Positions 4,557 through 52,538 of a stretch of 56,142 nt of DNA are shown here, in pieces; positions within the stretch are counted from its first letter, which is position 1, and each line of letters opens with the position of its first letter. The notes beneath the pieces are model-generated. The model was not told where the DNA came from. It ran no database searches and was given only the letters and a program-made list of their open reading frames with translations. The translations under genes and the position numbers were made by a program. This stretch comes from a virus (taxonomy: Duplodnaviria > Caudoviricetes), in the IMG/VR virus record IMGVR_UViG_3300017910_000401, positions 1-56,142 of that record. One strand, given 5' to 3'.

Positions 4557-4608
4557 AAGACCTCCATCTTATAAAAATTAGTTTAAAAAAGTTGGCTTGT
4601 AAGCCAAC

Positions 4609-4707
4609 ACCTAGACCAGAACAATCAGGTGAAAATTATTCGCTAGTGAATAATATTTTTTTATCTTGTTCTGGTTTCGATTGAATCTCACAATCTCCTC
4701 AGTAGGT
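4609..4707 (-). ncRNA. Hammerhead ribozyme HH-A (type I), predicted cut GUC between 4614 and 4613
   Basis: ACCUA-CUGAGGA-GAUUG(UGAGAUU)CAAUC-GAAA-CCAGAACAA...UUGUUCUGG-UC/UAGGU; complete core and three stems. Confidence 0.92.
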
Positions 4708-5343
4708 TTAAGTCTCTGTAAAAGTTATAGTTATACCATCACTTACAAGACCAGATACGTTTGCAAAAATACTCATAACAATTGTGTCAATTTCGTACTT
4801 TGCTTCGTAAAGTGTGTCGCATCTAAAATTTTTAGAAAAAGGCACAGCAGTTTCAAAATCATACCAAGCCATTTTGAAATTTGGATAAACGACATAATGT
4901 TTAAGATGATTATTTCTAGCAATAACAAAGTTTCGATAAAGATATTCTTTCCAATCTTTATTTTCTGATACTTTTGCTATTGCCATTTGATTACGAAGAA
5001 ACTCATAAGCTTCAGGAAAATCTTTATAAGCTTTTTGCACTTTGACTTTTGTCTTGTGCCAATCGCTTTCCTTTGGCTCTGCTTTCATTTTGTGATAAAA
5101 ATCTTTAAGACGTTTATTACACTTTTCAAAATCATCCATGAGCATAAGATATCTATGAGTTAGATTACCTTTTGCGATACAAACCTTATATTCAAAATCA
5201 AGTTTATTAAGAATATTTTTAATGGTATGTGACGTTGAATGATAACCGCTTTCATAGTAGCTTCGCATTGAATTAGGACAATTAGGATAACTGTCTAATT
5301 TTGTTTTGCTCATTTCTAAAGCATCTTTCAATAATTTTTCCAT
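4708..5343 (-). CDS. Hypothetical early protein
   Basis: 211 aa with GGAGGT RBS. Confidence 0.75.
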   Translation of the reverse strand: MEKLLKDALEMSKTKLDSYPNCPNSMRSYYESGYHSTSHTIKNILNKLDFEYKVCIAKGNLTHRYLMLMDDFEKCNKRLKDFYHKMKAEPKESDWHKTKVKVQKAYKDFPEAYEFLRNQMAIAKVSENKDWKEYLYRNFVIARNNHLKHYVVYPNFKMAWYDFETAVPFSKNFRCDTLYEAKYEIDTIVMSIFANVSGLVSDGITITFTET

Positions 5344-5370
5344 AAGACCTCCATCTTATAAAAGTTAATT

Positions 5371-5457
5371 AAACTGATTTCGGCTCTTTTGAGCCACCCT
5401 CCTAAAAGGGTACGTTTTCACGTTCATCAGGCAAAACACACATTTTGCTATCAGTTT
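5371..5457 (-). ncRNA. Hammerhead ribozyme HH-B (type III variant with extra hairpins), predicted cut AUA between 5449 and 5448
   Basis: AAACUGAUA/GCAAAA(UGUGUG)UUUUGC-CUGAUGA-[three hairpins]-GAAAUCAGUUU. Confidence 0.75.
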
Positions 5458-5500
5458 TTAAAATTAGACCTCCATACAGGCTCATAGAGGGCAAAACTAA

Positions 5501-5541
5501 TAGCAAGTGATATCTGAGTACCCCTCAAATATCACTCGCTA
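5501..5541 (-). other. 18-bp RNA hairpin after the VWA gene stop
   Basis: UAGCGAGUGAUAUUUGAG-GGGUA-CUCAGAUAUCACUUGCUA, with two G-U pairs on the minus strand. Confidence 0.7.
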
Positions 5542-5552
5542 ATAGAAAGTTT

Positions 5553-6893
5553 TTAGTCGTAGAATCTAGCAGTATCTACATAGACCACCTCGCCAAAGGC
5601 AAGACGTTCTGAATAACTGCTTTTTTCAGTACAACACCAAAACACAGGAACATCAGGCTCAACGTCTTCAGAAACGTCTCCCCAACCATCGGTAAAATAC
5701 ACTAAGGCTTGAACGTCTTCGGCATCATCAGTGTAGTCATTCAACAGATTAAATACAGGGTCAAACTCTGTACCGCCACCGCCACGAACTACTAACTCTA
5801 ATTCATCGCCTGAAGATAAATCATAGTAATCCCACCATTCCCCCTGTCCATTTTTACGAACAGTTGTGTCACAGTAGCAAACTCTGATTTTTTCAAGACC
5901 GCAGTCTTCCGCCATAGCTTGTATCTCAGTAGCAAATTTATTCAATTCGTATTGAGATACAGAACCTGAAGTATCGATTGCAACCGCTAACTCGCCACCT
6001 TGTGGAGACCTAGTTTTACTCGGCAAATTTAAACCTTGCCATGCAAACCTTTTATTCAGTCTCGACCATGAGTAATCGTTAGCAACAGAAGAACGTAAAA
6101 GGTCATTCAATTGTTCTTTCCAATCAATTGAAGTCTCTTTCAATTCTTCCATTCTGCCACCGCAAGACGAATTAGTACCGCTTCCAACAGCTACTTCTAG
6201 CTTGTCAGATAAGGCTACTGCTCTTTGAATCTCAGTTGAGATTTCTTGAATCTCAGCATCACTCAATGGCTTTCCTTCATCGTCAGTTGCATCCAACACC
6301 TCGCCAATAGTTGAAGGAATAGCATCTAAATCAATCGACTCAGATTCTTCGCCATCTTCGTCAGTTTCTTCATCAGAAATATTTCCTTCACTAGTGTCTG
6401 GTATTTCAGAATCTTGCGAATCATCCTCCATGTCCGCATTCTGATTTTGTTCCTTGACTTGCTCGATTGCTTCTTGCAGGTCATCTTCATTTTTAATTAA
6501 ATGTTGATAAACCTTTTCCGCAGACCAACCCTTGTATTTATGGTCAAGTAAACCGCCAAAAGGCAATTCAAAATTTAAATCCCAATACAAGTAAGCATTG
6601 ATAACGTAATCACAAGCAATATTCCATACTTTAGGATGACGTTTACCACGTCTTAGTGGATGTTCATAAACAACGTGCAATGCTTCGTGAACAAGTACAC
6701 CTCGCAATTCTGCTTCGGTTAATTTATCCACGAATGGCGGATAGTAAAAAATGTTTTTACCATCAGTCGCCATCGTATCGCACTTTGATTCTTCACATTC
6801 AACCAAGTCAAGATTAAGGAGCATACTAGCCATGCCAATATGCCCTTTCATCAATTTTGCTCTAGCCTTAATTATGGTTTCAAGAGTTTTCAT
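5553..6893 (-). CDS. DUF2201-type protein: HExxH metallopeptidase-like N-domain plus VWA domain
   Basis: TMATDG, LVHEALH, WNIACDYVIN, MIDAS motif DTSGS, GGGGTEF, YFTDG. The start is probably the ATG at 6893 (RBS GGAGGT upstream) rather than 6908. Confidence 0.88.
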   Translation of the reverse strand: MKTLETIIKARAKLMKGHIGMASMLLNLDLVECEESKCDTMATDGKNIFYYPPFVDKLTEAELRGVLVHEALHVVYEHPLRRGKRHPKVWNIACDYVINAYLYWDLNFELPFGGLLDHKYKGWSAEKVYQHLIKNEDDLQEAIEQVKEQNQNADMEDDSQDSEIPDTSEGNISDEETDEDGEESESIDLDAIPSTIGEVLDATDDEGKPLSDAEIQEISTEIQRAVALSDKLEVAVGSGTNSSCGGRMEELKETSIDWKEQLNDLLRSSVANDYSWSRLNKRFAWQGLNLPSKTRSPQGGELAVAIDTSGSVSQYELNKFATEIQAMAEDCGLEKIRVCYCDTTVRKNGQGEWWDYYDLSSGDELELVVRGGGGTEFDPVFNLLNDYTDDAEDVQALVYFTDGWGDVSEDVEPDVPVFWCCTEKSSYSERLAFGEVVYVDTARFYD

Positions 6894-7866
6894 CTTTCTT
6901 ACCTCCATAAATTTTGTCGAACAAATTGCCTTTCAATCCATCAATAGATTGTTCAAGACCTTCGGCAACCTGTTCACGTTTTTGCTTTCCTAAATCTGTT
7001 TCGTCTCTAAGAGAATCAACAGAATTTATTGTTGCAAGAACAGAACAAAGACTTTGATGAGCATCAGCAATATTTTTATTATTGCCTAGTACATCCTGAT
7101 TAATAGAAGGTAGCACTTCAACCGCTTGTCTCAATTTCTCGAAACTAGATTTGTTGAAGAATCCGCCCTTCTGCTTGTTGTCAGGGTCATACTCTTTGAG
7201 TTTAGTCGCAACGTGATTAACTTGTTCTAGTAAAGCATCAACAGTAATTGTCATTACGTTTTTGATGTTTTTGTTAGACCTGTTAATCGCATCCGCTTCT
7301 ATTCTCTGCCTTAACTTTTCTGAGACGTTAAGTCTAATATCGTTTCCGAAAGTAGGTACAGGAGTCATTTCAAATTGAAACAAAAACTTTTGTCTTAATT
7401 TGTCAAAATCAATGTAGTCACTTTCTCTGAAAGCATCGCCCAAGTTTCTCTTCGCCATTTCCATTTGTTTAGGATAGCTTCTGAGAAAGCCTTGAACTTC
7501 TTTATCCCAAACAAGAGTAGCTTGGTCTACTTCATACTGAAGTCGTTCAAGATTCGTGTTAGGGCAAAGTCGCCATTCCGATAAAACTTTTCCCTCGTCA
7601 TCAAGGGATGAAGAATCATCCCACGGCAAAGTTAAAGGTTTATAAAAGTCATTCCTAAACTTATCTAAAATTTGGCGAAACTCTTTATTGATATTTCGAC
7701 CAAAGATGTGTTTAGAAACACCTAACAATTTATCGTCTGATACTTTCGTATCTTCCGCTAAACCGCTTCTCAATTTCTTATCGACTTTAATGCCTGATGG
7801 ATGTCTTGCAGTAAGACGAACCAACATACAATTTTCCGATAAGGTATTTGTTAATTTTTTATCCAT
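6880..7866 (-). CDS. Helical partner of the AAA/VWA module (possibly DUF3150-like)
   Basis: 328 aa, TLPWDD...WRLCP motif; lies between the AAA and VWA genes. Confidence 0.55.
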   Translation of the reverse strand: MDKKLTNTLSENCMLVRLTARHPSGIKVDKKLRSGLAEDTKVSDDKLLGVSKHIFGRNINKEFRQILDKFRNDFYKPLTLPWDDSSSLDDEGKVLSEWRLCPNTNLERLQYEVDQATLVWDKEVQGFLRSYPKQMEMAKRNLGDAFRESDYIDFDKLRQKFLFQFEMTPVPTFGNDIRLNVSEKLRQRIEADAINRSNKNIKNVMTITVDALLEQVNHVATKLKEYDPDNKQKGGFFNKSSFEKLRQAVEVLPSINQDVLGNNKNIADAHQSLCSVLATINSVDSLRDETDLGKQKREQVAEGLEQSIDGLKGNLFDKIYGGKKDENS

Positions 7867-7896: not shown

Positions 7897-7952
7897 TATC
7901 TGATTTCACAGTTTTCTGCTCGTCAGTTGGAATCACATTCCAATATCAGATA
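7897..7952 (-). ncRNA. Hammerhead ribozyme HH-C (compact type III), predicted cut AUA between 7944 and 7943
   Basis: UAUCUGAUA/UUGGAA(UGUGA)UUCCAA-CUGACGA-GCAG(AAAA)CUGU-GAAAUCAGAUA. Confidence 0.9.
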
Positions 7953-9130: not shown

Positions 9131-9211
9131 ACCTAGAAGCAACCTTTTTACAGGCTAGACTTAAATCTATTTAATGCTTTTCGCTAGAGTTTCACTAGCA
9201 CGTCAGTAGGT
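9131..9211 (-). ncRNA. Hammerhead ribozyme HH-D (type I, A9U core variant), predicted cut UUC between 9136 and 9135
   Basis: ACCUA-CUGACGU-GCUAG(UGAAACU)CUAGC-GAAA-AGCA...UGCU-UC/UAGGU; overlaps the stop codon of the upstream ORF. Confidence 0.8.
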
Positions 9212-9625
9212 TTCTCTAAGAACTTCTTTTCCTAAAGTTAAATCGTAATGAATCTCCCTCGTTAGTTTAGGACTTTTAGTCTTGTCAATCCTAATCCAAT
9301 TATTAGATTCTTTGTCCTGATAAAGTCTAGGCTCAAAGTAAATATGAGTCTCGTTATCGTTCATTTGATATTTTTCAAATGAGGGAATCCAATCATCAGA
9401 TTCCATTCTCCAATCGATAAAATCATACCTAGTCATTACGTTGTCTTTTTTAATTAATTTAATTAAAGGCAAAATCTCTTTTACCAATTCAAGACTTTCA
9501 CTTGAAGAAATATCCTCAATTACGAACTCAGTTAATCCTTTAGGCTTCCAATAATCATTACCTTCCGCAGGATTTTCTACGTTGTAATTTGCAAATGTCT
9601 GAAAAGTTAATACTAATTTGCTCAT
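9203..9625 (-). CDS. Hypothetical early protein
   Basis: 140 aa, QTFANY...YWKPKG motif, GGAGG RBS. Confidence 0.75.
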   Translation of the reverse strand: MSKLVLTFQTFANYNVENPAEGNDYWKPKGLTEFVIEDISSSESLELVKEILPLIKLIKKDNVMTRYDFIDWRMESDDWIPSFEKYQMNDNETHIYFEPRLYQDKESNNWIRIDKTKSPKLTREIHYDLTLGKEVLRETY

Positions 9626-9680: not shown

Positions 9681-9743
9681 ACCTAGACCAACCCAAATTA
9701 ATTGAGTTGGTTTCGCCTGAATTTCACAGGCTCTTCAGTAGGT
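9681..9743 (-). ncRNA. Hammerhead ribozyme HH-E (canonical type I), predicted cut GUC between 9686 and 9685
   Basis: ACCUA-CUGAAGA-GCCUG(UGAAAUU)CAGGC-GAAA-CCAACUCAA(UUAAU)UUGGGUUGG-UC/UAGGU. Confidence 0.95.
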
Positions 9744-10049
9744 TTAGAATTGTTGAATAACATATCCTCCGCAATCAGTTTCTAAAACTGTGGTCACATC
9801 TTTTATGCTCTCCAATGTTGAATAAATTGTGCTTGTTCCATTGATTGAATAATCAGCAATCAATTCATCAACATTTTTATATTCCGCATAATCACAACAA
9901 ATGGCAATCACATCTAATTCTAAATTTTCCAATTCAGACAAATGCTCGTACAAAGCCTTTAACCCTTCTCTTGAAAAGTTGTTGGCATATTGTCCTGAGT
10001 TTCCAAATTCATTAATGAATTGATTTTCGTTTAAAGTTTTATATATCAT
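9744..10049 (-). CDS. Hypothetical early phage protein
   Basis: 101 aa, NFSREGLKALYE...ELDVIAICCDYAEY motif, GGAGG RBS. Confidence 0.75.
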   Translation of the reverse strand: MIYKTLNENQFINEFGNSGQYANNFSREGLKALYEHLSELENLELDVIAICCDYAEYKNVDELIADYSINGTSTIYSTLESIKDVTTVLETDCGGYVIQQF

Positions 10050-43198: not shown

Positions 43199-45021
43199 TG
43201 AATTTAGTAGAATTATCTGAAGAATTAGAATTCATGCCAAAAGATGCTTTGATACAATTATCACAAAATCCTAATTCTAATTATCCACCTTATTTGGTTT
43301 TAGCTGAAATACAAAGGCGTACTCAAATGGAAAAAATGTATGCAGCAGCTAGACCTAAACCACAGAATACAGTAGCAGAAGAAGTAGTAACGGATTTTGC
43401 TATGTCTACTCCCAATGCAGGTATATCCATGATGGATGGTTCAGCTCCAACTGAAAGATTCTCCCCTAAGTCCAGCGATATACCTGCTCCAGTATTAATG
43501 CAAACTGCAGCTAGTGGTGGTCTGACTGCCTATGCTAATAAAGGAAAAACTGAAACCACTGGTTCTAAAATAAAAAACTTTTTGACTGCACCTATAAGAG
43601 CTATTTCAGAGTTAGGTAGACTACGATATGAAGCAGGTAGAGATATGTCAAATCAACTTAGAGAGAATGCTTCTATGAGAGCTGACATCAGAAATGACTT
43701 AATAACAAAGTCTTTGCCAGTTATAAAAGGAGAAAAAACCTTAGAAGAATTTAAAAATGAAATGAGAGAACTTTATAATAATGATTTTATTAAAGATGAT
43801 AAGGGTTATAGAAATTCAATTAAAAATTATTATTACAATTTTGAACAAAAATTTCTACCTAGGTTTCAGAAAGAGATAGCAGAAACAGGTAAAATGCCAA
43901 AAGATGTTATAAAGCATTACGATGATTATGAAAATTTTAGAAATAGTAAGCAATACCTAAACAAATTTGATACAGGATATGAAAGACCTGACTTAACATT
44001 ACCATCAAAAGCTGGTGGTGGTATAACAGGTTATCAAAATAGAGGTCAAACTATGATAGAACAGTCTCTATCAAATCCTCAAGAAAGAGGATTTTTTGGT
44101 AAAACTTTTGACTACATAAAAGAAAACCCAGGTACTACAGCATTAAATGTAGCTAGTGCAGGTCTGATGTTTGTACCAGGTATAGGATTAGTATCTTTAG
44201 GTTTGAGAGGACTGCAAGCTGCAAGAGCATTAAACTATGCACAAGGAGCAAAAAAAGCTTACGATGTTGCAAAAAGAGGAACTATAGCTACAGGTAAAGC
44301 ATTAAATCCTAAAGTATTATATTCAAGACCTAATCCTATTTTTAGTAATTTACAACAAGGCACAAGAAGAGTGCTTCAAAAAGATGGAACATATAAAGTT
44401 ATAGATACTGCTACAGGTAAAGCGATAAAACCTAGAGTATTTTCTATGAAAAGAGCAGCACCTACTTCAATAGCTGGAGCAGCAGGTTTGCAAGCAATAA
44501 ATTATATGAATCAAGATGATAAAGTTATTAATCAAATGCCACCTCCTGAAAGAGAATTGTCTGCTGAAGATTTAGAAATTTTACGTTTACAAAATGAAGC
44601 TGCTATGGCAGAAACAGAAACTAAACCTAAAGGATTTGATGACCAAGCTTTAAATTTAATTAGTTTAGGTGGCACAATTATGGGTGCTCGTAATATGTCT
44701 GAATTAGGTCAAGGCTTAACTAGTTTTGCAACTGCTAAACAAGCAGCTAAAGGTGATGAAGCACAACAAGCTTATTACGCAGCTAGTGCAGCCAAAGCTC
44801 AGGCAGAAGTTGAAAATATGCCACTCGATAGAGTTATTTCTAGTATTGAAGCAATAACTGAGCAGCAAGAAGCAGCTTTAGAAAATAATGATACAGAAAC
44901 AGCAACAGCACTTGGATTACAACTACAAATTCTAAATCAAAGAGCTTTAGAATTACAAGGCATAGATGTGCAAACACAAGCTAGTATAGACAAAAACTTA
45001 ATTGCATCTTTTGGAACTTAA
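43198..45021 (+). CDS. Internal virion protein
   Basis: PPYLVLAEIQRR; helical; position in the ejection module. Confidence 0.55.
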   Translation: MNLVELSEELEFMPKDALIQLSQNPNSNYPPYLVLAEIQRRTQMEKMYAAARPKPQNTVAEEVVTDFAMSTPNAGISMMDGSAPTERFSPKSSDIPAPVLMQTAASGGLTAYANKGKTETTGSKIKNFLTAPIRAISELGRLRYEAGRDMSNQLRENASMRADIRNDLITKSLPVIKGEKTLEEFKNEMRELYNNDFIKDDKGYRNSIKNYYYNFEQKFLPRFQKEIAETGKMPKDVIKHYDDYENFRNSKQYLNKFDTGYERPDLTLPSKAGGGITGYQNRGQTMIEQSLSNPQERGFFGKTFDYIKENPGTTALNVASAGLMFVPGIGLVSLGLRGLQAARALNYAQGAKKAYDVAKRGTIATGKALNPKVLYSRPNPIFSNLQQGTRRVLQKDGTYKVIDTATGKAIKPRVFSMKRAAPTSIAGAAGLQAINYMNQDDKVINQMPPPERELSAEDLEILRLQNEAAMAETETKPKGFDDQALNLISLGGTIMGARNMSELGQGLTSFATAKQAAKGDEAQQAYYAASAAKAQAEVENMPLDRVISSIEAITEQQEAALENNDTETATALGLQLQILNQRALELQGIDVQTQASIDKNLIASFGT

Positions 45022-48000
45022 TGGAAAAAATAAATTTACCTGATGGACAGGTAATAAATATACCAGACAATATAGACCCAATAAAAAGGTCTGAATTAGC
45101 TGGTGCTATAAAAAGACAATATGACATAGATATAGATAAAGTATCTATTTTAGATAGAGTTGTAGATGCTCCTAAATCAGTAGCTAGAGGTACTATAAGC
45201 ACAGTAGCTAATGTACCATTGGGTTTGGCATCACTATTTGATATAGGCAACGATAGTGAAGTTGTAAAAGGTTTGCAAGGTTTTCGTGATTATCTTAGAG
45301 AAGATTCTATATTTGCTTCTGACCCATCATTAAGAAATAAATATTCTACTAAACTAGCTGAAGGTTTTGGTTCATTTGGACCATTTTTGGGTGCAGGTTT
45401 AGCAGGTCGTGCTTTAGCTAGGAGAGGTGTAGTAAGTCCTGCAGTAGGTACATTCGGACTACCAGCTGCATTAGCTGTACCAACAGGTATTTCTGAACAA
45501 GTAGACCGATTAGAAATAGCTAGAGATATGGGCGAAGAAGCTAATGCTGGTCAGGAAATATTATCTGAACTTATTGGTGGTGCTATTGGTTTATCTGAAA
45601 TTGCACCAATAGCTGCTTTTCTTAAAAGAGTACCTAAGTCTGCTGCTCGTAATCCTGAAATAAATGCTCGTATAACACAAATAGCTAAAGACTTTACAAC
45701 AGGTTTTGCATTTGAAGGTGCACAAGAATCTATTGCAAGTTTAACTCAAGATTTAGTTGCTAGAGGTTTATACAGTGATACTTTGCCAATTGGAGAAAGT
45801 TTCTTTGATGAGTTAACTATAGGGGGTATTGTTGGTGGTACTGCAAAAGCTGTAATAAATAGTCTTGGTCGTAAACAAGGAATTAAAAGTGAATATGCAG
45901 AAGAAAAAATAAGGCGTGAACAAGAAAATAAAAAAGATTTATTACGAGCTAAAAAATTCCAACAAGCACAAGAACAAGGAACACTTACAGAAGTGCAAGA
46001 TGTACCACAAGTTGTTAAGCCAGAGCTTGTTGTACCTGAAGCAACTCTACCAGAACCTGATTTAACAGTTGTTAGTTTGCCTAACAACACCTTTTCTATT
46101 GTTGATAACAACAATACGACACAACCAATAGTTGAAACTTTTACTAGTGAAGCTGATGCTTTATCTAAAAAAGAAGAGTTACTAACTGACTTTAATAATC
46201 AACGTCTTACCCAAGAATTAAACAAACAATTATATTTACAAGGCAATATAAATAGTGCGACTGCTTTTGAAATAGGGCAATCGTTACTTGACCCTATAGC
46301 AACTACAGTAACGCCTAATGATATTATTGCTTTTAAAACTAAAATATCCGACAAAGCTAAACAAAGTTTTTTAGAAAACAATACAAAACCTCTAACTCTT
46401 GAGGAGGCTAAAAATAATTTAACTAAAAAAGAATTCAATGATTTAGCTAGTTCTTTAGCTAGAGCACAGTTAAAAGCTAATGAAAAAAATGGACAACCAT
46501 CTATAACTGCAGGTAAAGACACCATAAACACTACTCCCAAATATATTAAAGAATTAGCTGAATCTAAAAATATAGATAACTTTAATCCTAATTCACCAGC
46601 TATAGCTCATGCACTAAAAATTTATACAGGCTCTAATGATTTAAAAGGCATGAGTAAAGGTCAAAAAGATTTATTAGTTGCTAGATTACACGCCCTTCCT
46701 AAATTTAATCAAAAACAAGAATTTCCTGATTTTAGACCTAAAGAATATTCTGCTAAAGATATGGCAGATTTTATTTCTAAAATAGACAAAGCTTCATTTA
46801 CTTTAAAAGATGTTGAAAATAATTTTGATGGCGATAAAGGTAAAGCTGCAATGTTTATCAGTCAATTACAAAAAAGTGGCAGAGCAGAGTTTTTAAAAGA
46901 AGAAGGTGCTTATCGAATAAAAGATAATTTTGAGTTTGAAATTGCAAGAAGAGCAGAAGCTTTTGACCAGACACCAGAAGAGTTTGGTGCATCCCTTAGA
47001 GAGCAAGGCACTTTATCTGAAGATGTAATAGCTAAATTAGTAGAAGAAGAAACTGTAAGACAAGAAAAAGTTTTACCTCCAGAAGAAATAGAACCTAAAT
47101 TAATTAACTTTGCTGAAGCTATTGAAGAAGGTAGAACTAATAAGTTTGCTAAAGAAATAAGAAAACAATTAGATAAGTTTGGTCTATCAGATACAGGTGT
47201 GGTTGTAAGTGATGATATTTTATCAACCACAACTCTTAGACAAACTACAGATGGTGTAGCTTTTGACCCTAGAGAAGTTAGAGAAGAAAGAATTGAAGGA
47301 GAATACGATAGAAATACAGACATAATCTTTTTATCTTTGAATGCTGTAAATCCTGATGGTAATGCGACAGATTTTGAAATAGAACAAAGATTAAGAAACA
47401 TAGTTAATCACGAAGTAATTCATGCTTTACGAGCAAAAGATTTATTAACAGAACCAGAATATAACTATTTACGAAAATTAGTTAAACAAAGAAAAGTGCC
47501 TAAAGATTTTGATGAAAATTATGCTAATAGAACTTTTTATGACCGAGCAGTTGATATAAATAGAGGAACAATAGAAGCTCGTAGACAAGCAGGTTTAAAT
47601 ATAAGTGATGAAAGAGCAGAAGAACTCTACATTGAAGAAGCTATAGCAGAAATGTATCGTGCTAAAGATATTGGACCAACCATGCCAAACAAAGTGGATG
47701 GCATCTTTAATAAATTTATAGAGTTTTTTAAAGGCATAGGACAAGCCATGCGTACATCAGGTTATAAAAATGTAGCTAATGTATTTGCTGAAATAGAACA
47801 AGGTCGTGTTGGTCGTAGAGCTAGAGGTGAATTAAGAACCACTAGAGAGCTTGATAGAGGAGCAGCCATAAGTCAGTTACCTCCAGATTTGCAAGCAGAA
47901 AAAGACCGCAGAGATAGAGCTGCTGCTGAAGCACAATTAAAACCAGATGAAATAGAAAGAGGTGCAGTTATAAAAACTGAATTATCACCACAAGAACTTT

Positions 48001-51000
48001 CTAGATTAGAGCCTGTTGCACCTACAAGACCAACACCTCCACCTCCGCCTCCACCACCCCCACCTGTAGTTGAAGAACCAACTATTGAGCCAGAAGTAAA
48101 ACCTGAAGTTCCAGATGCTAGACCTCCTGTAAAACCTGAAGAGCCAGCTATAGAAACTACATCTATTCCTAATACTATTTATGATTCTACAAAAAGAACG
48201 CTAGAAGAAAAAATTATAGAAGAGGCTTATATTGCACATGGATTAGCTGCTGCAGGAGTAATTACTGTAGAACAAGCTGACAGAATAGGTAGAGGTCAAG
48301 GTGTAAGGACTAAAGGCGATACTATAAAAATGTTGAAATGGTTTACTAAAAATTCTCCTAGTGAAGATTATAGAATTTTAGCTACTAAAGCTTTAGAAAC
48401 ATTAAACAAGTTAAAAAAATATGGAGTTACACTACCTTTTTCTATAAGTTCAGTTCAAGCTCAAGGTCGAGTTGCATTTCAATATAGTCTGAATTTAACA
48501 GACTCTATTAGTAATTTTGAACTTGGAACGAAGGACATGAAAATGACTATAAATTCCAAAACTGGTTTAGATTTTGAAACTATTTTGCATGAAACTTTAC
48601 ATTCTTCTTCTCTCTTACAATTAAAACTATTTGAAGTTTTAGAAAAACAAAATCTTGCTAGAAAGAGAAAAGGTTCTACAAAACCATCAGAAATAAGTAA
48701 AGTTCCAGAAAAGATACTTTCTACTAAAACTATAAAAGCATTTAGAAATTTAAATGAACAAAGACAAAGAGTTTTAAATTATATTGAAAATCAAAAAGTT
48801 GTTCTTCTTCAAGATTATAAAAATTTTGAAAGAAACAAAAAAACAGGCGACCGATATTATCGTAAAGATTTAGATAATAATCCTATTTTAAAACAATTGG
48901 CATTTGCTATAGCTGAAAAAGAAATGACTGGTCGTTCAACTTCATTACAGCAATGGGATAGAGTATATGTAGATTATTATCTTAAAGGTAGGCAAGCAAC
49001 AAGAAGTAGAGAAAATGATTCTTCTGAATTTATTACATTTGGTTTTACAAATAGACCATTTCAAAATTTTTTAGAAAACATACCATATGATGATAAAGGT
49101 AAAAAAACTGTTTGGAATAAATTTGTTGAAGCCATTAGAGATATTTTAAATTTACCAGCTAAATTAGATACAGAATTTGCAGCTTTTTTAAATAATGCAG
49201 CAGATATATTTTACAACCCTGAAGTAACACAAGAAAAATTAAGAGCACCTCCTACTAGTATTGATTCAAGACGTGCAGAGATAGAAGAAAAAATATTTGC
49301 TGCTGAAGATATGATTTATCGTTTAGAACGAGAAGAATATTTAGAGGGAGATGTAATGACTGTTGGTAGTTTGAATAGATTACAAGGCAGGATTAGACAA
49401 CAAAAAAGAAATTTAGCTTTTTTTAAAAATGAATTAGCTAATCTATCAGAAGAAATAGTAGAGCCTGAACAATTACCTTTATTTTCTAAAGGAGTTAGAT
49501 ATAACAAAAACAAAAATTCATCAGAAAGTAGACAGCTACAAGAGGCTGTTACAAAGGCTGAAGAACAGGCAAAGTCACAACCTAGAGGGGGTATACCTAG
49601 ATACAATACAAATGCCTCTGATATAGCTCTAAAAACAGCTATAGATTTTGAAAATGACCCTACTATGTCTGTACCTGATGACATACCTAATTGGTCAAAA
49701 CCAACACTAGATGGTGTAGACAACGATATTAGAGCAGGTATTAATCGTACAGGTGGTCAAAAAGCTCCAGAAAAATCTTTTGGTGCTAGATTATTAGAAA
49801 CATTAAAAGACCCTGTAACTAATATTGGTTTTTATTTTAGAGATTTTCGTCAAAATTATGTTGATAAATTAGATAAAACAGATAAAAAAATATTAAAAGG
49901 TATTCAAAAAAATGAACAAGTAAGAGCTTTTAACAATACTGCAGACACAGCTACTATGGCAGCTTTACGTCTGGCTGATAGAGCTAGAGGTTTATTTCAA
50001 GGTTTACTTACAACTGGCACCATTTCAGACAAAATAGATGGTGTAGCTGCTTTAGCAAATGTAGTTAAAAGTGAAGATGGTGGACTAATACAAATACTAG
50101 CACCACTTTATAGTAGACCAGAAGTAGACCAAGAATCTATATTTAAATTTTATGCTAGTTTAAAACGTACCGAACAATTTCAGAAAGATGGTCGTGTGGT
50201 TAAATCTCCTATTAAAGAAGAAGATTTAGCTTTAATAAAAAAAATAGAAGTTCAATATCCTGATGTAAAAAATGTTTTTGAAGCTTATCAACGTTGGAAT
50301 AATACTTTAATTACCTTTGCAGAAAATAAAGGATTGTTAAGTAAATTTAAATCTAACAATAAAATAATAGAAGAGTTAGAAAAAAAAGGTATTGACCAAG
50401 CTACTTTAGATAGATTAGCTCAACTATCAAAAGAAAATGGTGGCAGAAGCGTTCAAGAAATAAGAGAATTTGCTGTACAAAATGATATAGATATCAGAGG
50501 ACAAGCAGACCTTTGGCGAGAACATTCTAGTTATTATCCTTTTTATCGTGACATGGTAGATGATACAGGTATTACTGCTCCTACTGTAGCTGGTGGGTCT
50601 TTGCCTAATAATCCATTAAGTATTTCTTTAGAAGGTTCAGAAGACCCTTTAAATATAAATCCTTTAGAAGCTATATCTAGAAACTCTTTATCAATACTTA
50701 CTGCATCATTAAAAAATGATGGATTAGCAAAACTTATAAGAGACTTAGAACTTATGGGAGAAGCTAAAGAAGTAACACCAAAAGAGTCTGCTAAATTAAA
50801 TACTATATTTGTTTTTGATGAAGGTATTAAAAGACACTACGAAGTAGATGTAGAGTTGGTAAACGCTTTGCAATCTGTAGGTGGTACACAAAGAGGCATG
50901 ATAGAAAAAGTATTAGCTATGCCTGCAGGATTTTTACGAGAAACTGTTACTAGAGACCCAGGTTTCGTTGTGGTAAACATTTTAAGAGATACCTTTTCTA

Positions 51001-52538
51001 CTATGGTTACTTCAGGTGCAGACTTCGTGCCTGTTATAGATTCGTTTAAAAATCTAGTAGGCGACATGGAAAACCTTAAAAAGTTTGGTGTGCTAGGTGG
51101 TTATGACTTTTCTAATGATGAAGGTAGTGTCAAAGAATATATCACTCGAACTATGCGTAGAGAGGGATTAACACCAGATAACGGAATGTCGGCACAAAAA
51201 CTATTTTTTAAACTTTGGGATGGTTTGGGTGAATTAACTACAAGGTCAGATGGTGCAACAAGACAAGCAGTCTATGATGGAGTTTATAAAAAATTAATTA
51301 AAGAAGGTTATAACGAAGCACAGGCACAATCAGAAGCAGCTTATCAAGCTCTAGAAATAATTAACTTTGGTCGTAGAGGATTAAATCCTACGTTTAAAAT
51401 AATTACTGCAGCAATACCTTTTTTCAATGCCAGAATACAAGGTTTAGATATTATTTATCGTGCAGGTAGTGGTAAATATTCTGCTGTAGAAAAACTGCAA
51501 CAAGGTGAAACTTTAAAAGATGTACAAGGTCGTATCTTAAAAAATGTTGCATTAAAATCTGGAGTTTTATCGGCTATCACTCTTATATATTATTTATTAG
51601 TACATGATAGTGATGAATATAAAAATCTTAAACGAGAAGTAAGAGATGATAATTGGGTAGTTCCAGTAGGATTTAATCATGCAGTAAAAATACCAATACC
51701 TTTTGAAGTAGGATTTTTATTTAAAGTAGTTCCTGAAAGATTTTTTGATATGACTTTAGGAGATGAAGCTTTTACTAGAAGTTCAGTAAACGAAGCAGGA
51801 ACCTCTATATCTAGAGGTTTAGGTACTTCTCTTGCAATACCTTTCTTTGATGCTGGGGGTGTACAAGCATTAAAACCAATAGTAGAAGCATTAATAAATA
51901 AAAACTCTTTTACCAAACAAGACATTGTTCCTTACTATCAACTACAAAAAGAACCTGCATTGCAATTTAGAGAAGGTACAAGCCAACTAGCAAAAGAAAT
52001 AGGAGAACAACTAAACATTTCTCCTGCTAAAGTAGAGCACGTTTTTAGAGGGTACACAGGCACTCTAGGAGGCTATGTGGTGGCTTTGTCAGACACAATC
52101 ACTAGATTGGTCACAGGTGAACCTTTAATGCCTAAAAATGCTAGTTTCTTGCAGAATACTCCACTTAGAAGATTGCTTTTAGATTATGATAAATCTGGTG
52201 GTTTGCAACAACAATTTTATGAATTACGAGGAGAGGTGGATAGAGCAGTAGCAACTATCAACTCATTAAAAAAAGAAAAAAGATTTGATGAACTATCAGC
52301 TTATAGGACTAACAGAAAAGGTGTATTGGATATCAAAGGTCAAATTAGAGCCTTAGAAAAATATCTAGCAAACTTTAGAGAAAGACGTAATAGACTATTA
52401 CTAAATGAGAATATATCCGTTGCAGAGAAATCTGAACGACTCAGACAAATGGAAATAGAACGTGATAAACGACTAGCTTTTGTACCAGAGTTAAGAAAGA
52501 GAGCCAATCTCCCTGTTATTAATATGAACCCTTTCTAG
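45021..52538 (+). CDS. Giant internal virion / large polyvalent protein with a C-terminal LPD38-like domain
   Basis: 2505 aa; two HExxH motifs (NHEVIHAL, LHETLHS); INFGRRG, IPFFNARIQG, KIPIPFEVG, ISPAKVEHVFRGYTGTLG. Confidence 0.75.
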   Translation: MEKINLPDGQVINIPDNIDPIKRSELAGAIKRQYDIDIDKVSILDRVVDAPKSVARGTISTVANVPLGLASLFDIGNDSEVVKGLQGFRDYLREDSIFASDPSLRNKYSTKLAEGFGSFGPFLGAGLAGRALARRGVVSPAVGTFGLPAALAVPTGISEQVDRLEIARDMGEEANAGQEILSELIGGAIGLSEIAPIAAFLKRVPKSAARNPEINARITQIAKDFTTGFAFEGAQESIASLTQDLVARGLYSDTLPIGESFFDELTIGGIVGGTAKAVINSLGRKQGIKSEYAEEKIRREQENKKDLLRAKKFQQAQEQGTLTEVQDVPQVVKPELVVPEATLPEPDLTVVSLPNNTFSIVDNNNTTQPIVETFTSEADALSKKEELLTDFNNQRLTQELNKQLYLQGNINSATAFEIGQSLLDPIATTVTPNDIIAFKTKISDKAKQSFLENNTKPLTLEEAKNNLTKKEFNDLASSLARAQLKANEKNGQPSITAGKDTINTTPKYIKELAESKNIDNFNPNSPAIAHALKIYTGSNDLKGMSKGQKDLLVARLHALPKFNQKQEFPDFRPKEYSAKDMADFISKIDKASFTLKDVENNFDGDKGKAAMFISQLQKSGRAEFLKEEGAYRIKDNFEFEIARRAEAFDQTPEEFGASLREQGTLSEDVIAKLVEEETVRQEKVLPPEEIEPKLINFAEAIEEGRTNKFAKEIRKQLDKFGLSDTGVVVSDDILSTTTLRQTTDGVAFDPREVREERIEGEYDRNTDIIFLSLNAVNPDGNATDFEIEQRLRNIVNHEVIHALRAKDLLTEPEYNYLRKLVKQRKVPKDFDENYANRTFYDRAVDINRGTIEARRQAGLNISDERAEELYIEEAIAEMYRAKDIGPTMPNKVDGIFNKFIEFFKGIGQAMRTSGYKNVANVFAEIEQGRVGRRARGELRTTRELDRGAAISQLPPDLQAEKDRRDRAAAEAQLKPDEIERGAVIKTELSPQELSRLEPVAPTRPTPPPPPPPPPPVVEEPTIEPEVKPEVPDARPPVKPEEPAIETTSIPNTIYDSTKRTLEEKIIEEAYIAHGLAAAGVITVEQADRIGRGQGVRTKGDTIKMLKWFTKNSPSEDYRILATKALETLNKLKKYGVTLPFSISSVQAQGRVAFQYSLNLTDSISNFELGTKDMKMTINSKTGLDFETILHETLHSSSLLQLKLFEVLEKQNLARKRKGSTKPSEISKVPEKILSTKTIKAFRNLNEQRQRVLNYIENQKVVLLQDYKNFERNKKTGDRYYRKDLDNNPILKQLAFAIAEKEMTGRSTSLQQWDRVYVDYYLKGRQATRSRENDSSEFITFGFTNRPFQNFLENIPYDDKGKKTVWNKFVEAIRDILNLPAKLDTEFAAFLNNAADIFYNPEVTQEKLRAPPTSIDSRRAEIEEKIFAAEDMIYRLEREEYLEGDVMTVGSLNRLQGRIRQQKRNLAFFKNELANLSEEIVEPEQLPLFSKGVRYNKNKNSSESRQLQEAVTKAEEQAKSQPRGGIPRYNTNASDIALKTAIDFENDPTMSVPDDIPNWSKPTLDGVDNDIRAGINRTGGQKAPEKSFGARLLETLKDPVTNIGFYFRDFRQNYVDKLDKTDKKILKGIQKNEQVRAFNNTADTATMAALRLADRARGLFQGLLTTGTISDKIDGVAALANVVKSEDGGLIQILAPLYSRPEVDQESIFKFYASLKRTEQFQKDGRVVKSPIKEEDLALIKKIEVQYPDVKNVFEAYQRWNNTLITFAENKGLLSKFKSNNKIIEELEKKGIDQATLDRLAQLSKENGGRSVQEIREFAVQNDIDIRGQADLWREHSSYYPFYRDMVDDTGITAPTVAGGSLPNNPLSISLEGSEDPLNINPLEAISRNSLSILTASLKNDGLAKLIRDLELMGEAKEVTPKESAKLNTIFVFDEGIKRHYEVDVELVNALQSVGGTQRGMIEKVLAMPAGFLRETVTRDPGFVVVNILRDTFSTMVTSGADFVPVIDSFKNLVGDMENLKKFGVLGGYDFSNDEGSVKEYITRTMRREGLTPDNGMSAQKLFFKLWDGLGELTTRSDGATRQAVYDGVYKKLIKEGYNEAQAQSEAAYQALEIINFGRRGLNPTFKIITAAIPFFNARIQGLDIIYRAGSGKYSAVEKLQQGETLKDVQGRILKNVALKSGVLSAITLIYYLLVHDSDEYKNLKREVRDDNWVVPVGFNHAVKIPIPFEVGFLFKVVPERFFDMTLGDEAFTRSSVNEAGTSISRGLGTSLAIPFFDAGGVQALKPIVEALINKNSFTKQDIVPYYQLQKEPALQFREGTSQLAKEIGEQLNISPAKVEHVFRGYTGTLGGYVVALSDTITRLVTGEPLMPKNASFLQNTPLRRLLLDYDKSGGLQQQFYELRGEVDRAVATINSLKKEKRFDELSAYRTNRKGVLDIKGQIRALEKYLANFRERRNRLLLNENISVAEKSERLRQMEIERDKRLAFVPELRKRANLPVINMNPF

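Follow-up and report, generated by a model that had tools for sequence, protein, structure and literature searches.

A type III hammerhead ribozyme from a marine phage with two hairpins inserted between A9 and G10.1

Background

For almost 40 years, work on hammerhead ribozymes has rested on one premise: the strands of the conserved core continue directly into stems I, II and III. In the block model paper by Eckert, Friedrich, Weinberg and Weinberg (2023, PMC10085705), which analysed all known alignments, this premise takes the form that Block C (stem I strand, CUGAnGA and stem II strand) is uninterruptible, and it defines which hammerhead permutations can exist. The same paper states that in no known hammerhead alignment are more than 1–2 nt inserted between A9 and G10.1 (Eckert et al. 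2023, PMC10085705), and the passages of Forgia 2023 that were examined contain nothing relevant to an insert at this position. A survey of the literature full text yielded no natural hammerhead with a large A9/G10.1 insert or a four- or five-way junction, with the qualification that unremarked ones might occur in the alignments supplementing Perreault 2011 and Eckert 2023. Arrays of several hammerheads flanking phage genes have been described to cleave polycistronic RNA (PMC3088659; PMC6765202).

Here we describe HH-B, a hammerhead on the minus strand of the virus record IMGVR_UViG_3300017910_000401 (Caudoviricetes), the full 56,142 nt of which form the window analysed. As judged by sequence comparison, HH-B is a member of a recurrent, structurally conserved type III subclass of marine phages that carries a two-hairpin, four-way-junction insertion.

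Structure of the HH-B hammerhead

Folding of the minus-strand segment 5465–5365 with RNAfold gave a five-branch multiloop as both the minimum free energy (MFE) and the centroid structure, at -32.1 kcal/mol against a mean of -16.6 kcal/mol for shuffles of the same segment (z -4.55, 0/200 shuffles as stable as HH-B), and this fold persisted within the 231-nt intergenic context. A covariance model (R1), which was built from alignment A1 of 20 distinct extended sequences and agrees with a simple hammerhead finder, matched positions 5455–5373 with 87.9 bits (E 1.4e-19 in the window), a score that is partly by construction since HH-B is itself among the 20 training sequences.

HH-B (5371..5457, minus strand) is a genuine type III hammerhead, with the full conserved core consisting of C3–A9 (CUGAUGA, 5424..5430) and G12 A13 A14 (GAA, 5379..5381), both read directly from the sequence. 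Core position and fold place the 5′ strand of the open stem III, AAACUGAU, at 5450..5457 and its 3′ strand, AUCAGUUU, at 5371..5378, with A5378 (A15.1) pairing with U5450 (U16.1). The H17 nucleotide is A5449, the non-G residue of a type III cleavage site, and from its position relative to the core cleavage is predicted 3′ of A5449, between 5449 and 5448 (AUA/G). AUA is listed as a natural hammerhead triplet, and as a slow one (PMC1636495). Stem I (5431..5448) folds as 7 bp, GCAAAAU-GUGU-GUUUUGC, with GUGU as loop 1. Changes on both sides of a pair were found for 5/6 modelled pairs of stem III (helix 1 of the model), 6/7 of stem I (helix 2) and 3/5 of stem II (helix 5), and the A15.1–U16.1 and G10.1–C11.1 pairs were each invariant in 29/29 distinct extended sequences.

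A first-pass annotation had noted three abutting hairpins between CUGAUGA and GAAA with no enclosing helix, and the MFE fold bears this out as a five-way junction. The first of these, H1 (5412..5423, minus strand), is ACGU-GAAA-ACGU, a 4-bp stem with a GNRA tetraloop; the second, H2 (5396..5411, minus strand), was initially read as 5 bp with a UUUAGG loop, but is in the fold more likely ACCCUU-UUAG-GAGGGU, with 6 bp including a U.G pair and a UUAG loop. The third (GGCUC-AAAA-GAGCC, 5382..5395, minus strand) had been counted with the other two as a replacement of stem II; it is instead the normal stem II, since it abuts G12 and is letter-for-letter identical to the stem II of a compact orthologue (locus L004) that is without H1 and H2. 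Where CUGAnGA would otherwise adjoin stem II with at most 1–2 nt between them, HH-B has the 27 nt of H1 and H2. Since none of the four strand crossings has an unpaired linker, a perfect four-way junction is made up by H1, H2, stem II and the core helix (A9.G12); in formal terms, the modelled fold of HH-B combines this four-way junction with the three-way junction of the hammerhead.

Genomic context

The window represents a virus record that is about 95% complete and encodes terminase, portal protein, structural proteins and a primase-helicase. No DNA match to deposited phages was found for it in either near or distant similarity mode, and the 451-aa protein encoded upstream of HH-B has relatives in deposited phages at about 30% identity or less only. 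HH-B is located in a 209-nt gap, on the coding strand, between the gene for this protein (5553..6908, minus strand), a putative metallopeptidase with a DUF2201_N domain (PF13203, 4e-39) and a VWA-like domain (PF09967, 4.4e-16; PHROG 1314), and an open reading frame of 211 aa (4708..5343, minus strand) for which no PHROG or Pfam family match was found. The gap contains, in this order, the stop codon of the upstream gene, a long hairpin of about 21 bp directly after it (5497..5545, minus strand; flagged as terminator-like at 5541–5501), a second hairpin of 8 bp (5469..5490, minus strand), the hammerhead, and a hairpin (5338..5363, minus strand) with the Shine-Dalgarno sequence GGAGG at its top, which also holds the AUG (5343–5341) of the downstream gene. 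The first two hairpins are taken from the fold of the intergenic region, and the last from the fold and the start of the reading frame. In an attempt at a consensus fold, the MAFFT alignment of the region upstream of the hammerhead was poor. One RNA run contained 6% of the sampled words, and gave two 151-nt contigs at 6867–7217, outside HH-B.

The same minus-strand region contains three other hammerhead-like elements. HH-C (7950–7899, minus strand) is a compact type III hammerhead that scores 37 bits with R1, and the other two are type I hammerhead motifs with a GUC triplet. Each of the two has a hairpin after it: for the motif at 9743–9681 (minus strand) this was recognised by sequence inspection only, and for that at 4707–4609 (minus strand) it is flagged as terminator-like at 4608–4591.

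Comparison with orthologous loci

A set of 58 related loci was retrieved from viral contigs via the flanking 451-aa protein. All 47 close-kin loci that keep enough downstream sequence have a hammerhead approximately 85–130 nt after the stop codon, and most of these orthologous hammerheads are compact, with the arrangement CUGAUGA-U-GAYUC AAAA GARUC-GAAA. Among the compact forms the nearest is L004, which has 92% protein identity and the same downstream gene as L003, and reads CUGAUGA-U-GGCUC AAAA GAGCC-GAAA. The L003 hammerhead equals the L004 sequence plus a 27-nt insert, and the two otherwise differ by one letter of loop 1 and by H17 (A vs C). The same clean indel separates the compact L013 from the extended L017, with a different insert of 36 nt and identical stems I–III. 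Hairpins H1 and H2 thus constitute a precise 27-nt insertion between A9 and G10.1, at which position the compact orthologues have one bulged U, and the compact relatives of HH-B a single U or A.

The alignment with orthologous gaps in related phages, which the first-pass annotation had proposed as a check, separated compact and extended states by a clean indel at A9/G10.1. The annotation had further put forward HH-C as a matching sibling and natural control. The match holds for the architecture and for the CUGAU/AUCAG stem III, and fails for stem I (UUGGAAU vs GCAAAAU) and loop 1 (GUG in HH-C); as a control, HH-C is surpassed by L004, which has the flanking genes, stem II and stem III of HH-B, a near-identical stem I that is one loop letter off, and no insert.

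Compact and extended forms alike keep loop 1 (AUGUGU-like) and loop 2 (AAAA, with a C-G closing pair), the two loops that may engage in a tertiary contact. Fourteen distinct compact forms have an A9-to-G12 segment of 15 nt, which where read is made up of a single bulged nucleotide and then stem II, with 5 bp and the loop AAAA, and the extended forms appear to derive from this compact subclass.

Distribution of extended hammerheads

Searching the 58 loci and the window (59 sources) with R1 at E ≤0.001 gave 116 matches, consisting of 23 complete extended copies (72.4–98.2 bits), one copy cut by the end of its locus, and compact forms for the rest (≤55 bits). Overall, 30 distinct extended hammerheads were found in marine phage contigs, a tally of distinct sequences and not of contigs, as many contigs are duplicated across collections. 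Two paralogous sites carry extended forms: the HH-B site downstream of the 451-aa gene (13/49 scored) and the HH-C site upstream of the preceding 328-aa gene (9/46 scored), with L043 and L054 also extended at the upstream site but outside the 46 scored. When plotted on the tree of the flanking protein, the extended and compact states require at least six changes at the HH-B site and at least five at the upstream site, and in L008, L019 and L032–L034 extended forms occur at both sites, flanking a two-gene cassette.

The module is present in two hammerhead subfamilies, one with AUGUGU as loop 1 and AAAA as loop 2, the other with a U-rich loop 1 and AUUAA or GUAA as loop 2. Moreover, a near-identical H1–H2 module was found in hammerheads with differing stems I and II (L017, L020, L032 and L008), which together with the repeated changes of state shows the module to be mobile. 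Sequence comparison is most simply explained by spread of the module through recombination in the conserved core and stem II, and a nearly neutral or mildly harmful passenger spreading by recombination would also fit the patchy distribution and minority status of the extended forms.

Pattern scans extended this survey beyond the protein-anchored loci, with the sequences so obtained required to have an intact core, and with both the pattern and a foldability filter favouring foldable inserts. Further variants on viral contigs were L112, L151, L169, L211 and L262. A second viral scan returned, among the matches listed, 111 pattern matches that were mostly chance matches in coding sequence; 24 of those listed had at least 3/4 H1 pairs (16 distinct), and 3/16 were hammerheads. 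R1 detected no additional kinds in the viral loci of the pattern scans, of which the last 25 (L268–L292) were screened by the finder only. In metagenome contigs, 28/32 stretches were extended hammerheads and four were chance matches. The scan of the genomes of 185,579 species gave a single match, which was a chance one, and no bacterial host or prophage was found in these genomes.

Detection by existing models was also examined. Rfam at gathering score gave no hits in the whole window or in 14 related loci, an E-value search of 4800–6200 gave no hammerhead at E up to 10 and only a chance miRNA-like hit, and HH-C alone gave no hammerhead at E up to 10. RF00008 alone, searched over the window, reached only 16.5 bits (cut-off 48.5) at 9711–9748, which is another element. 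Compact canonical relatives also miss the Rfam hammerhead thresholds, and since these are clearly canonical, the failure of Rfam reflects the models more than the RNA.

Covariation and regularity of the inserted hairpins

The inserted module is 27–40 nt overall (27 nt in HH-B), and its pairing was assessed in three alignments. In alignment A4 (29 distinct sequences), 98.1% of cells were paired and the covariation score was 0.786, compared with 0.263 for shuffles (0/500 reaching the observed value) and at most 0.116 for slid partners. All 4/4 pairs of H1 (helix 3) and 6/6 modelled pairs of H2 (helix 4) had changes on both sides with 100% of cells paired, in A4 as well as in A3 (21 distinct sequences), in which 24/28 modelled pairs vary. 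As A3 and A4 were fitted to the covariance model, we also scored the MAFFT alignment A1, which was not model-fitted: here 95.2% of cells pair, with the unpaired cells mostly due to four rows in which MAFFT was off by one column, 4/4 pairs of H1 and 5/6 of H2 covary, and the covariation score was 0.616 vs 0.224 for shuffles (0/500) and at most 0.097 for slid partners. The first-pass annotation had made its reading depend on conservation of the inserted hairpins, and these are indeed kept as structure, with 10/10 inserted pairs covarying.

Hairpins are inverted repeats, and the clean indel and patchy distribution are features that could also be expected of an element acting at the DNA level, for instance a miniature mobile insertion or protein sites in the form of inverted repeats, that landed in the hammerhead and has no role as RNA. 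We consider this highly improbable. G.U pairs are common in H2 (in A4, seven UG at columns 51/73, four GU at 48/76, and six UG plus two GU at 53/71), and in the opposite strand the same positions would form C.A mismatches; the structure therefore exists at the RNA level, on this strand, and not in DNA. Furthermore, the insertion point is always exactly A9/G10.1 with 0-nt linkers, the sequences of the variants are unrelated while the structure is kept, and no copies of the module are present outside hammerheads in the window.

The dimensions of the module follow strict rules in some respects and are free in others. In all 19 distinct viral variants the linkers between A9 and H1, H1 and H2, H2 and stem II, and stem II and G12 are 0 nt. 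The H1 stem is 4 bp in 24/29 and 3 bp in 5/29 distinct sequences, and is capped by GAAA (19), GCAA (5), GAGA (3) or GAAAAA (2), so that 27/29 loops are GNRA. A second copy in L307, which fell below the E cut-off and hence outside A4, has the non-GNRA loop UAUAU on H1, and GUAA on H2. In contrast to H1, the H2 hairpins have stems and loops that are unrelated to one another, and measure 14–28 nt in the 29 aligned sequences and 17 nt in the thirtieth. Viral loci gave 152 distinct hammerhead-like sequences, in which the A9-to-G12 segment was either 8–22 nt with one hairpin or 40–54 nt with three hairpins, the remaining cases being chance matches with weak stems and one hammerhead with a long branched stem II; no genuine two-hairpin form, with a single inserted hairpin, was found among these 152.

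Core integrity and folding

The minority, patchy distribution of the extended forms raises the alternative that HH-B is an attenuated or dead copy, in which stem II or the A9/G10.1 metal site is pushed out of place by the insert and HH-B consequently cleaves poorly or never, and persists because the loss of cutting is tolerated or slower cutting is useful, with the module recombining via the core and stem II. The changes of state at the HH-B site and the occurrence of near-identical modules on differing stems I and II, as given above, are in line with this. Core decay does occur within the family, as the upstream-site hammerhead of L002 reads CUGAAUGA, with an insertion after A6, and Perreault et al. 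2011 found an insertion after A6 to be weakly active (PMC3088659).

Against this alternative, 23/23 protein-anchored extended copies have a perfect CUGANGA, GAAA, A15.1–U16.1 pair and non-G H17, and since these copies were found through the neighbouring protein, they were not selected for an intact core. A dead ribozyme is also hard to reconcile with the compensatory changes in 10/10 inserted pairs, as these imply long-term selection for a folded insert. The strict 0-nt linkers, the lack of one-hairpin inserts and the extended forms at both cassette-flanking sites in the five loci named above point the same way, and we regard an attenuated or dead HH-B as unlikely. The option of a disabled copy, raised in the first-pass annotation, is thus disfavoured by sequence comparison, and its other option of a new active topology is favoured, given the recurrence, the covariation of all inserted pairs, the absence of linkers and the intact core.

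By nearest-neighbour thermodynamics, the insert is no hindrance to folding of the hammerhead: the stems of the ribozyme had a partition-function probability of 0.19–0.58 in 7 extended vs 0.08–0.64 in 9 compact natural sequences, and this comparison likewise showed no consistent folding gain from the insert. Within the clade with the CUGAU/AUCAG stem III, the values were 0.39–0.41 for extended vs 0.08–0.19 for compact forms, and the compact L004 prefers a predicted misfold in which the core CUGAU is paired with the 3′ strand of stem III. This gives a hint that the insert might suppress the misfold in this clade.

Two features count against activity: the insert presumably adjoins the metal site formed by the A9 phosphate and G10.1, and the AUA triplet is a slow one. 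The hammerhead of CChMVd(+) has an extra A between A9 and G10.1, and this is associated with a moderate rate loss only (PMC1636495), which indicates that the backbone at this position tolerates an extruded residue.

Proposed function

We propose that HH-B is probably a maintained, active type III hammerhead with a two-hairpin A9/G10.1 insertion, and comparison with its relatives likewise makes it reasonably likely that HH-B is catalytically competent. Perfect four-way junctions fold by pairwise coaxial stacking, and perfect three-way junctions without spare nucleotides stack poorly. In HH-B, stem II would accordingly stay coaxially stacked on the core, as catalysis requires, with H1 stacked on H2 alongside, which would place the short, GNRA-capped H1 next to stem III and the core, and the variable H2 next to stem II. 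If stem II can keep its place on the core only through four-way stacking, it would follow that the insert is always two hairpins and never one. Selection would maintain the pairing of both inserted hairpins because an unfolded insert would presumably wreck the core, and a positive contribution of the module may lie in tertiary bracing by the GNRA loop or in suppression of misfolding.

The ribozyme would still cut itself after A5449, and this cut would divide the polycistronic transcript shortly before the hairpin that carries the ribosome-binding site of the downstream gene, leaving the upstream mRNA with two 3′ hairpins and the downstream mRNA with a 5′-OH and a structured leader. Cleavage at HH-B would fit the proposal that bacterial and phage hammerheads process polycistronic transcripts (PMC3088659; PMC6765202).

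The first-pass annotation had also listed an allosteric ribozyme, for which we found no positive support: the insert is purely helical, its only conserved loop or bulge is the GNRA cap, H2 varies freely, and the two plain hairpins have no aptamer-like pocket as in ligand-responsive ribozymes. A related possibility is that cleavage is conditional. Perfect four-way junctions exchange between two stacking conformers, and the junction might stack either stem II (active) or H1 (inactive) on the core, with a GNRA-binding protein, ions or temperature selecting the conformer. The perfect junction with its 0-nt linkers, the constrained length of H1 with a GNRA cap in 27/29 sequences, and the alternation of compact and extended forms in otherwise identical contexts, as expected for a regulatory difference, are all consistent with such gating. 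However, apart from GNRA, no internal loop, bulge or loop sequence is conserved from which a ligand pocket could be formed, the length and loop of H2 are unconstrained, the GNRA loop may merely stabilise a stem of 3–4 bp, and the second L307 copy dispenses with it. In addition, the sequence of H1 recurs in the window no more than by chance (4 matches at ≤2 mismatches vs 2.9 expected), and a dedicated H1-binding protein with other targets is therefore not indicated. We find a gated ribozyme rather doubtful, and hold it equally improbable that the junction acts as a conformational gate with the balance of stacking under control of the GNRA hairpin or of a factor bound to it. If such a gate did exist, extended hammerheads would cut later or conditionally, timing the separation of early-gene cassettes, and HH-B would be the first case of a natural hammerhead whose regulation relies on the topology of its junction.

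Should HH-B be active, as we consider probable, the natural isogenic pairs (L003 vs L004, and L017 vs L013) would allow the effect of a four-way junction on folding and metal binding to be probed, and the insertion would offer a new scaffold for engineered switches. A recurrent, covarying natural insertion at A9/G10.1 also means that the premise of uninterrupted core strands is not absolute, and it explains why such forms escape search patterns and Rfam models, with the Rfam threshold reached by none of the hammerheads of this phage group.

Comparison with known systems

In terms of the block model, HH-B has the blocks S, C and G in the type III order (SCG), as the model describes, but unlike in the model, HH-B and its kin interrupt Block C. 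With the canonical type III hammerhead (Hammerhead_3, RF00008), as described by Perreault et al. 2011 (PMC3088659), HH-B shares the core, the A15.1–U16.1 pair, a non-G H17, and stems I–III with stem III open. The canonical form is a three-way junction, whereas HH-B is a five-way junction with 27 nt folded as two hairpins between A9 and G10.1. The insertion point is the same as that in the CChMVd(+) hammerhead, but the latter has one nucleotide where the phage module has 27–40 nt, and occurs in a viroid rather than a DNA phage (PMC1636495).

The phage and prophage hammerheads reported by Perreault et al. (PMC3088659) are, like HH-B, intergenic, on the coding strand of phage genes, and present several per region. 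The prophage multi-hammerhead arrays of that study (Perreault et al. 2011) likewise have several ribozymes delimiting gene cassettes per transcript, but these are compact. From its position, we infer that HH-B may have a similar role in delimiting cassettes, which would make it a further instance of hammerheads that mark the borders of exchangeable gene cassettes, here in uncultivated marine phages. The synthetic insulator RiboJ resembles HH-B in that the ribozyme immediately precedes a ribosome-binding hairpin and a gene, but is compact.

A natural small self-cleaving RNA with a perfect four-way junction is the hairpin ribozyme, in which the junction holds the functional helices and two of the arms are structural only. 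The hairpin ribozyme has a different catalytic fold, and its junction is the ancestral scaffold, whereas the junction of HH-B is an optional add-on that is absent from most of its relatives.

Hammerheads at the borders of gene cassettes

Among close relatives (loci L001-L052), the first gene 3′ of the site-2 hammerhead is widely different, and some loci carry an additional hammerhead-plus-gene cassette (for instance L013-L016, at ~4839-4889); the hammerheads mark the borders of exchangeable cassettes. In the window, HH-C (7897-7952, minus strand) is a compact type III hammerhead, which on its sequence has a CUGACGA core, stem II GCAG-AAAA-CUGU and an AUA triplet, with the 328-aa gene downstream of it. 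At the HH-C site, which is paralogous to that of HH-B, some relatives have the extended form, which carries the two-hairpin insert.

Variant and compact hammerheads in related loci

In L004:4453-4512, the compact orthologue of HH-B, and in other compact forms with the CUGAU/AUCAG stem III, the CUGAU of the core is repeated in the 5′ strand of stem III. In the predicted minimum free energy structure of the L004 hammerhead, an inactive fold, the core is base-paired to the stem III 3′ strand; this misfold was absent from the predicted folds of the extended orthologues. Another compact hammerhead (L002:1964-2015; core CUGAAUGA) has an additional A after A6, a kind of variant reported as weakly active by Perreault et al. 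2011 (PMC3088659), and this copy may be in decay. In the viral locus L148 (~9167-9252 in reverse-strand coordinates, minus strand), a hammerhead belonging to the 'AAUUAA loop 1' kind has a long, branched stem II of 43 nt, which is another route to a larger stem II.

Two type I hammerhead-like motifs were also located on the minus strand of the window, at 9681-9743 and 4609-4707, sharing the layout ACCUA-CUGARGA-stem II-GAAA-stem III hairpin-GUC|UAGGU. The latter has a long stem III and begins directly 3′ of a stop codon (4708-4710), and on the 3′ side of each motif stands a GC-rich hairpin that has a run of U (~9679-9660 and 4608-4591, respectively, minus strand). RF00008 matched only the motif at 9681-9743, weakly (16.5 bits), with no match to that at 4609-4707.

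Neighbouring hairpins and a giant open reading frame

On the minus strand, the stop codon that ends the 451-aa gene is followed by a nearly perfect hairpin of ~21 bp (5497-5545) and then, ahead of HH-B, by an 8-bp hairpin (5469-5490); these could serve as a leaky terminator, RNase III site or 3′ stabiliser. Relatives have comparable long hairpins of differing sequence at the position equivalent to 5497-5545, and an alignment-based fold of this hairpin region was uninformative.

Distant relatives of the 451-aa protein occur in N4-like phages such as Acinetobacter phage Presley and Vibrio virus SBP1, and for this reason the giant protein of the 2505-aa ORF (45021-52538, plus strand) might be a virion RNA polymerase.

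A small hairpin with the Shine-Dalgarno sequence GGAGG in or beside its loop is present just 3′ of HH-B (5338-5363, minus strand), and similar GGAGG-presenting hairpins were found downstream of HH-C and in loci L005, L013 and L040, each just 3′ of a hammerhead. This natural order of hammerhead followed by Shine-Dalgarno hairpin is similar to that of RiboJ, a synthetic ribozyme insulator.
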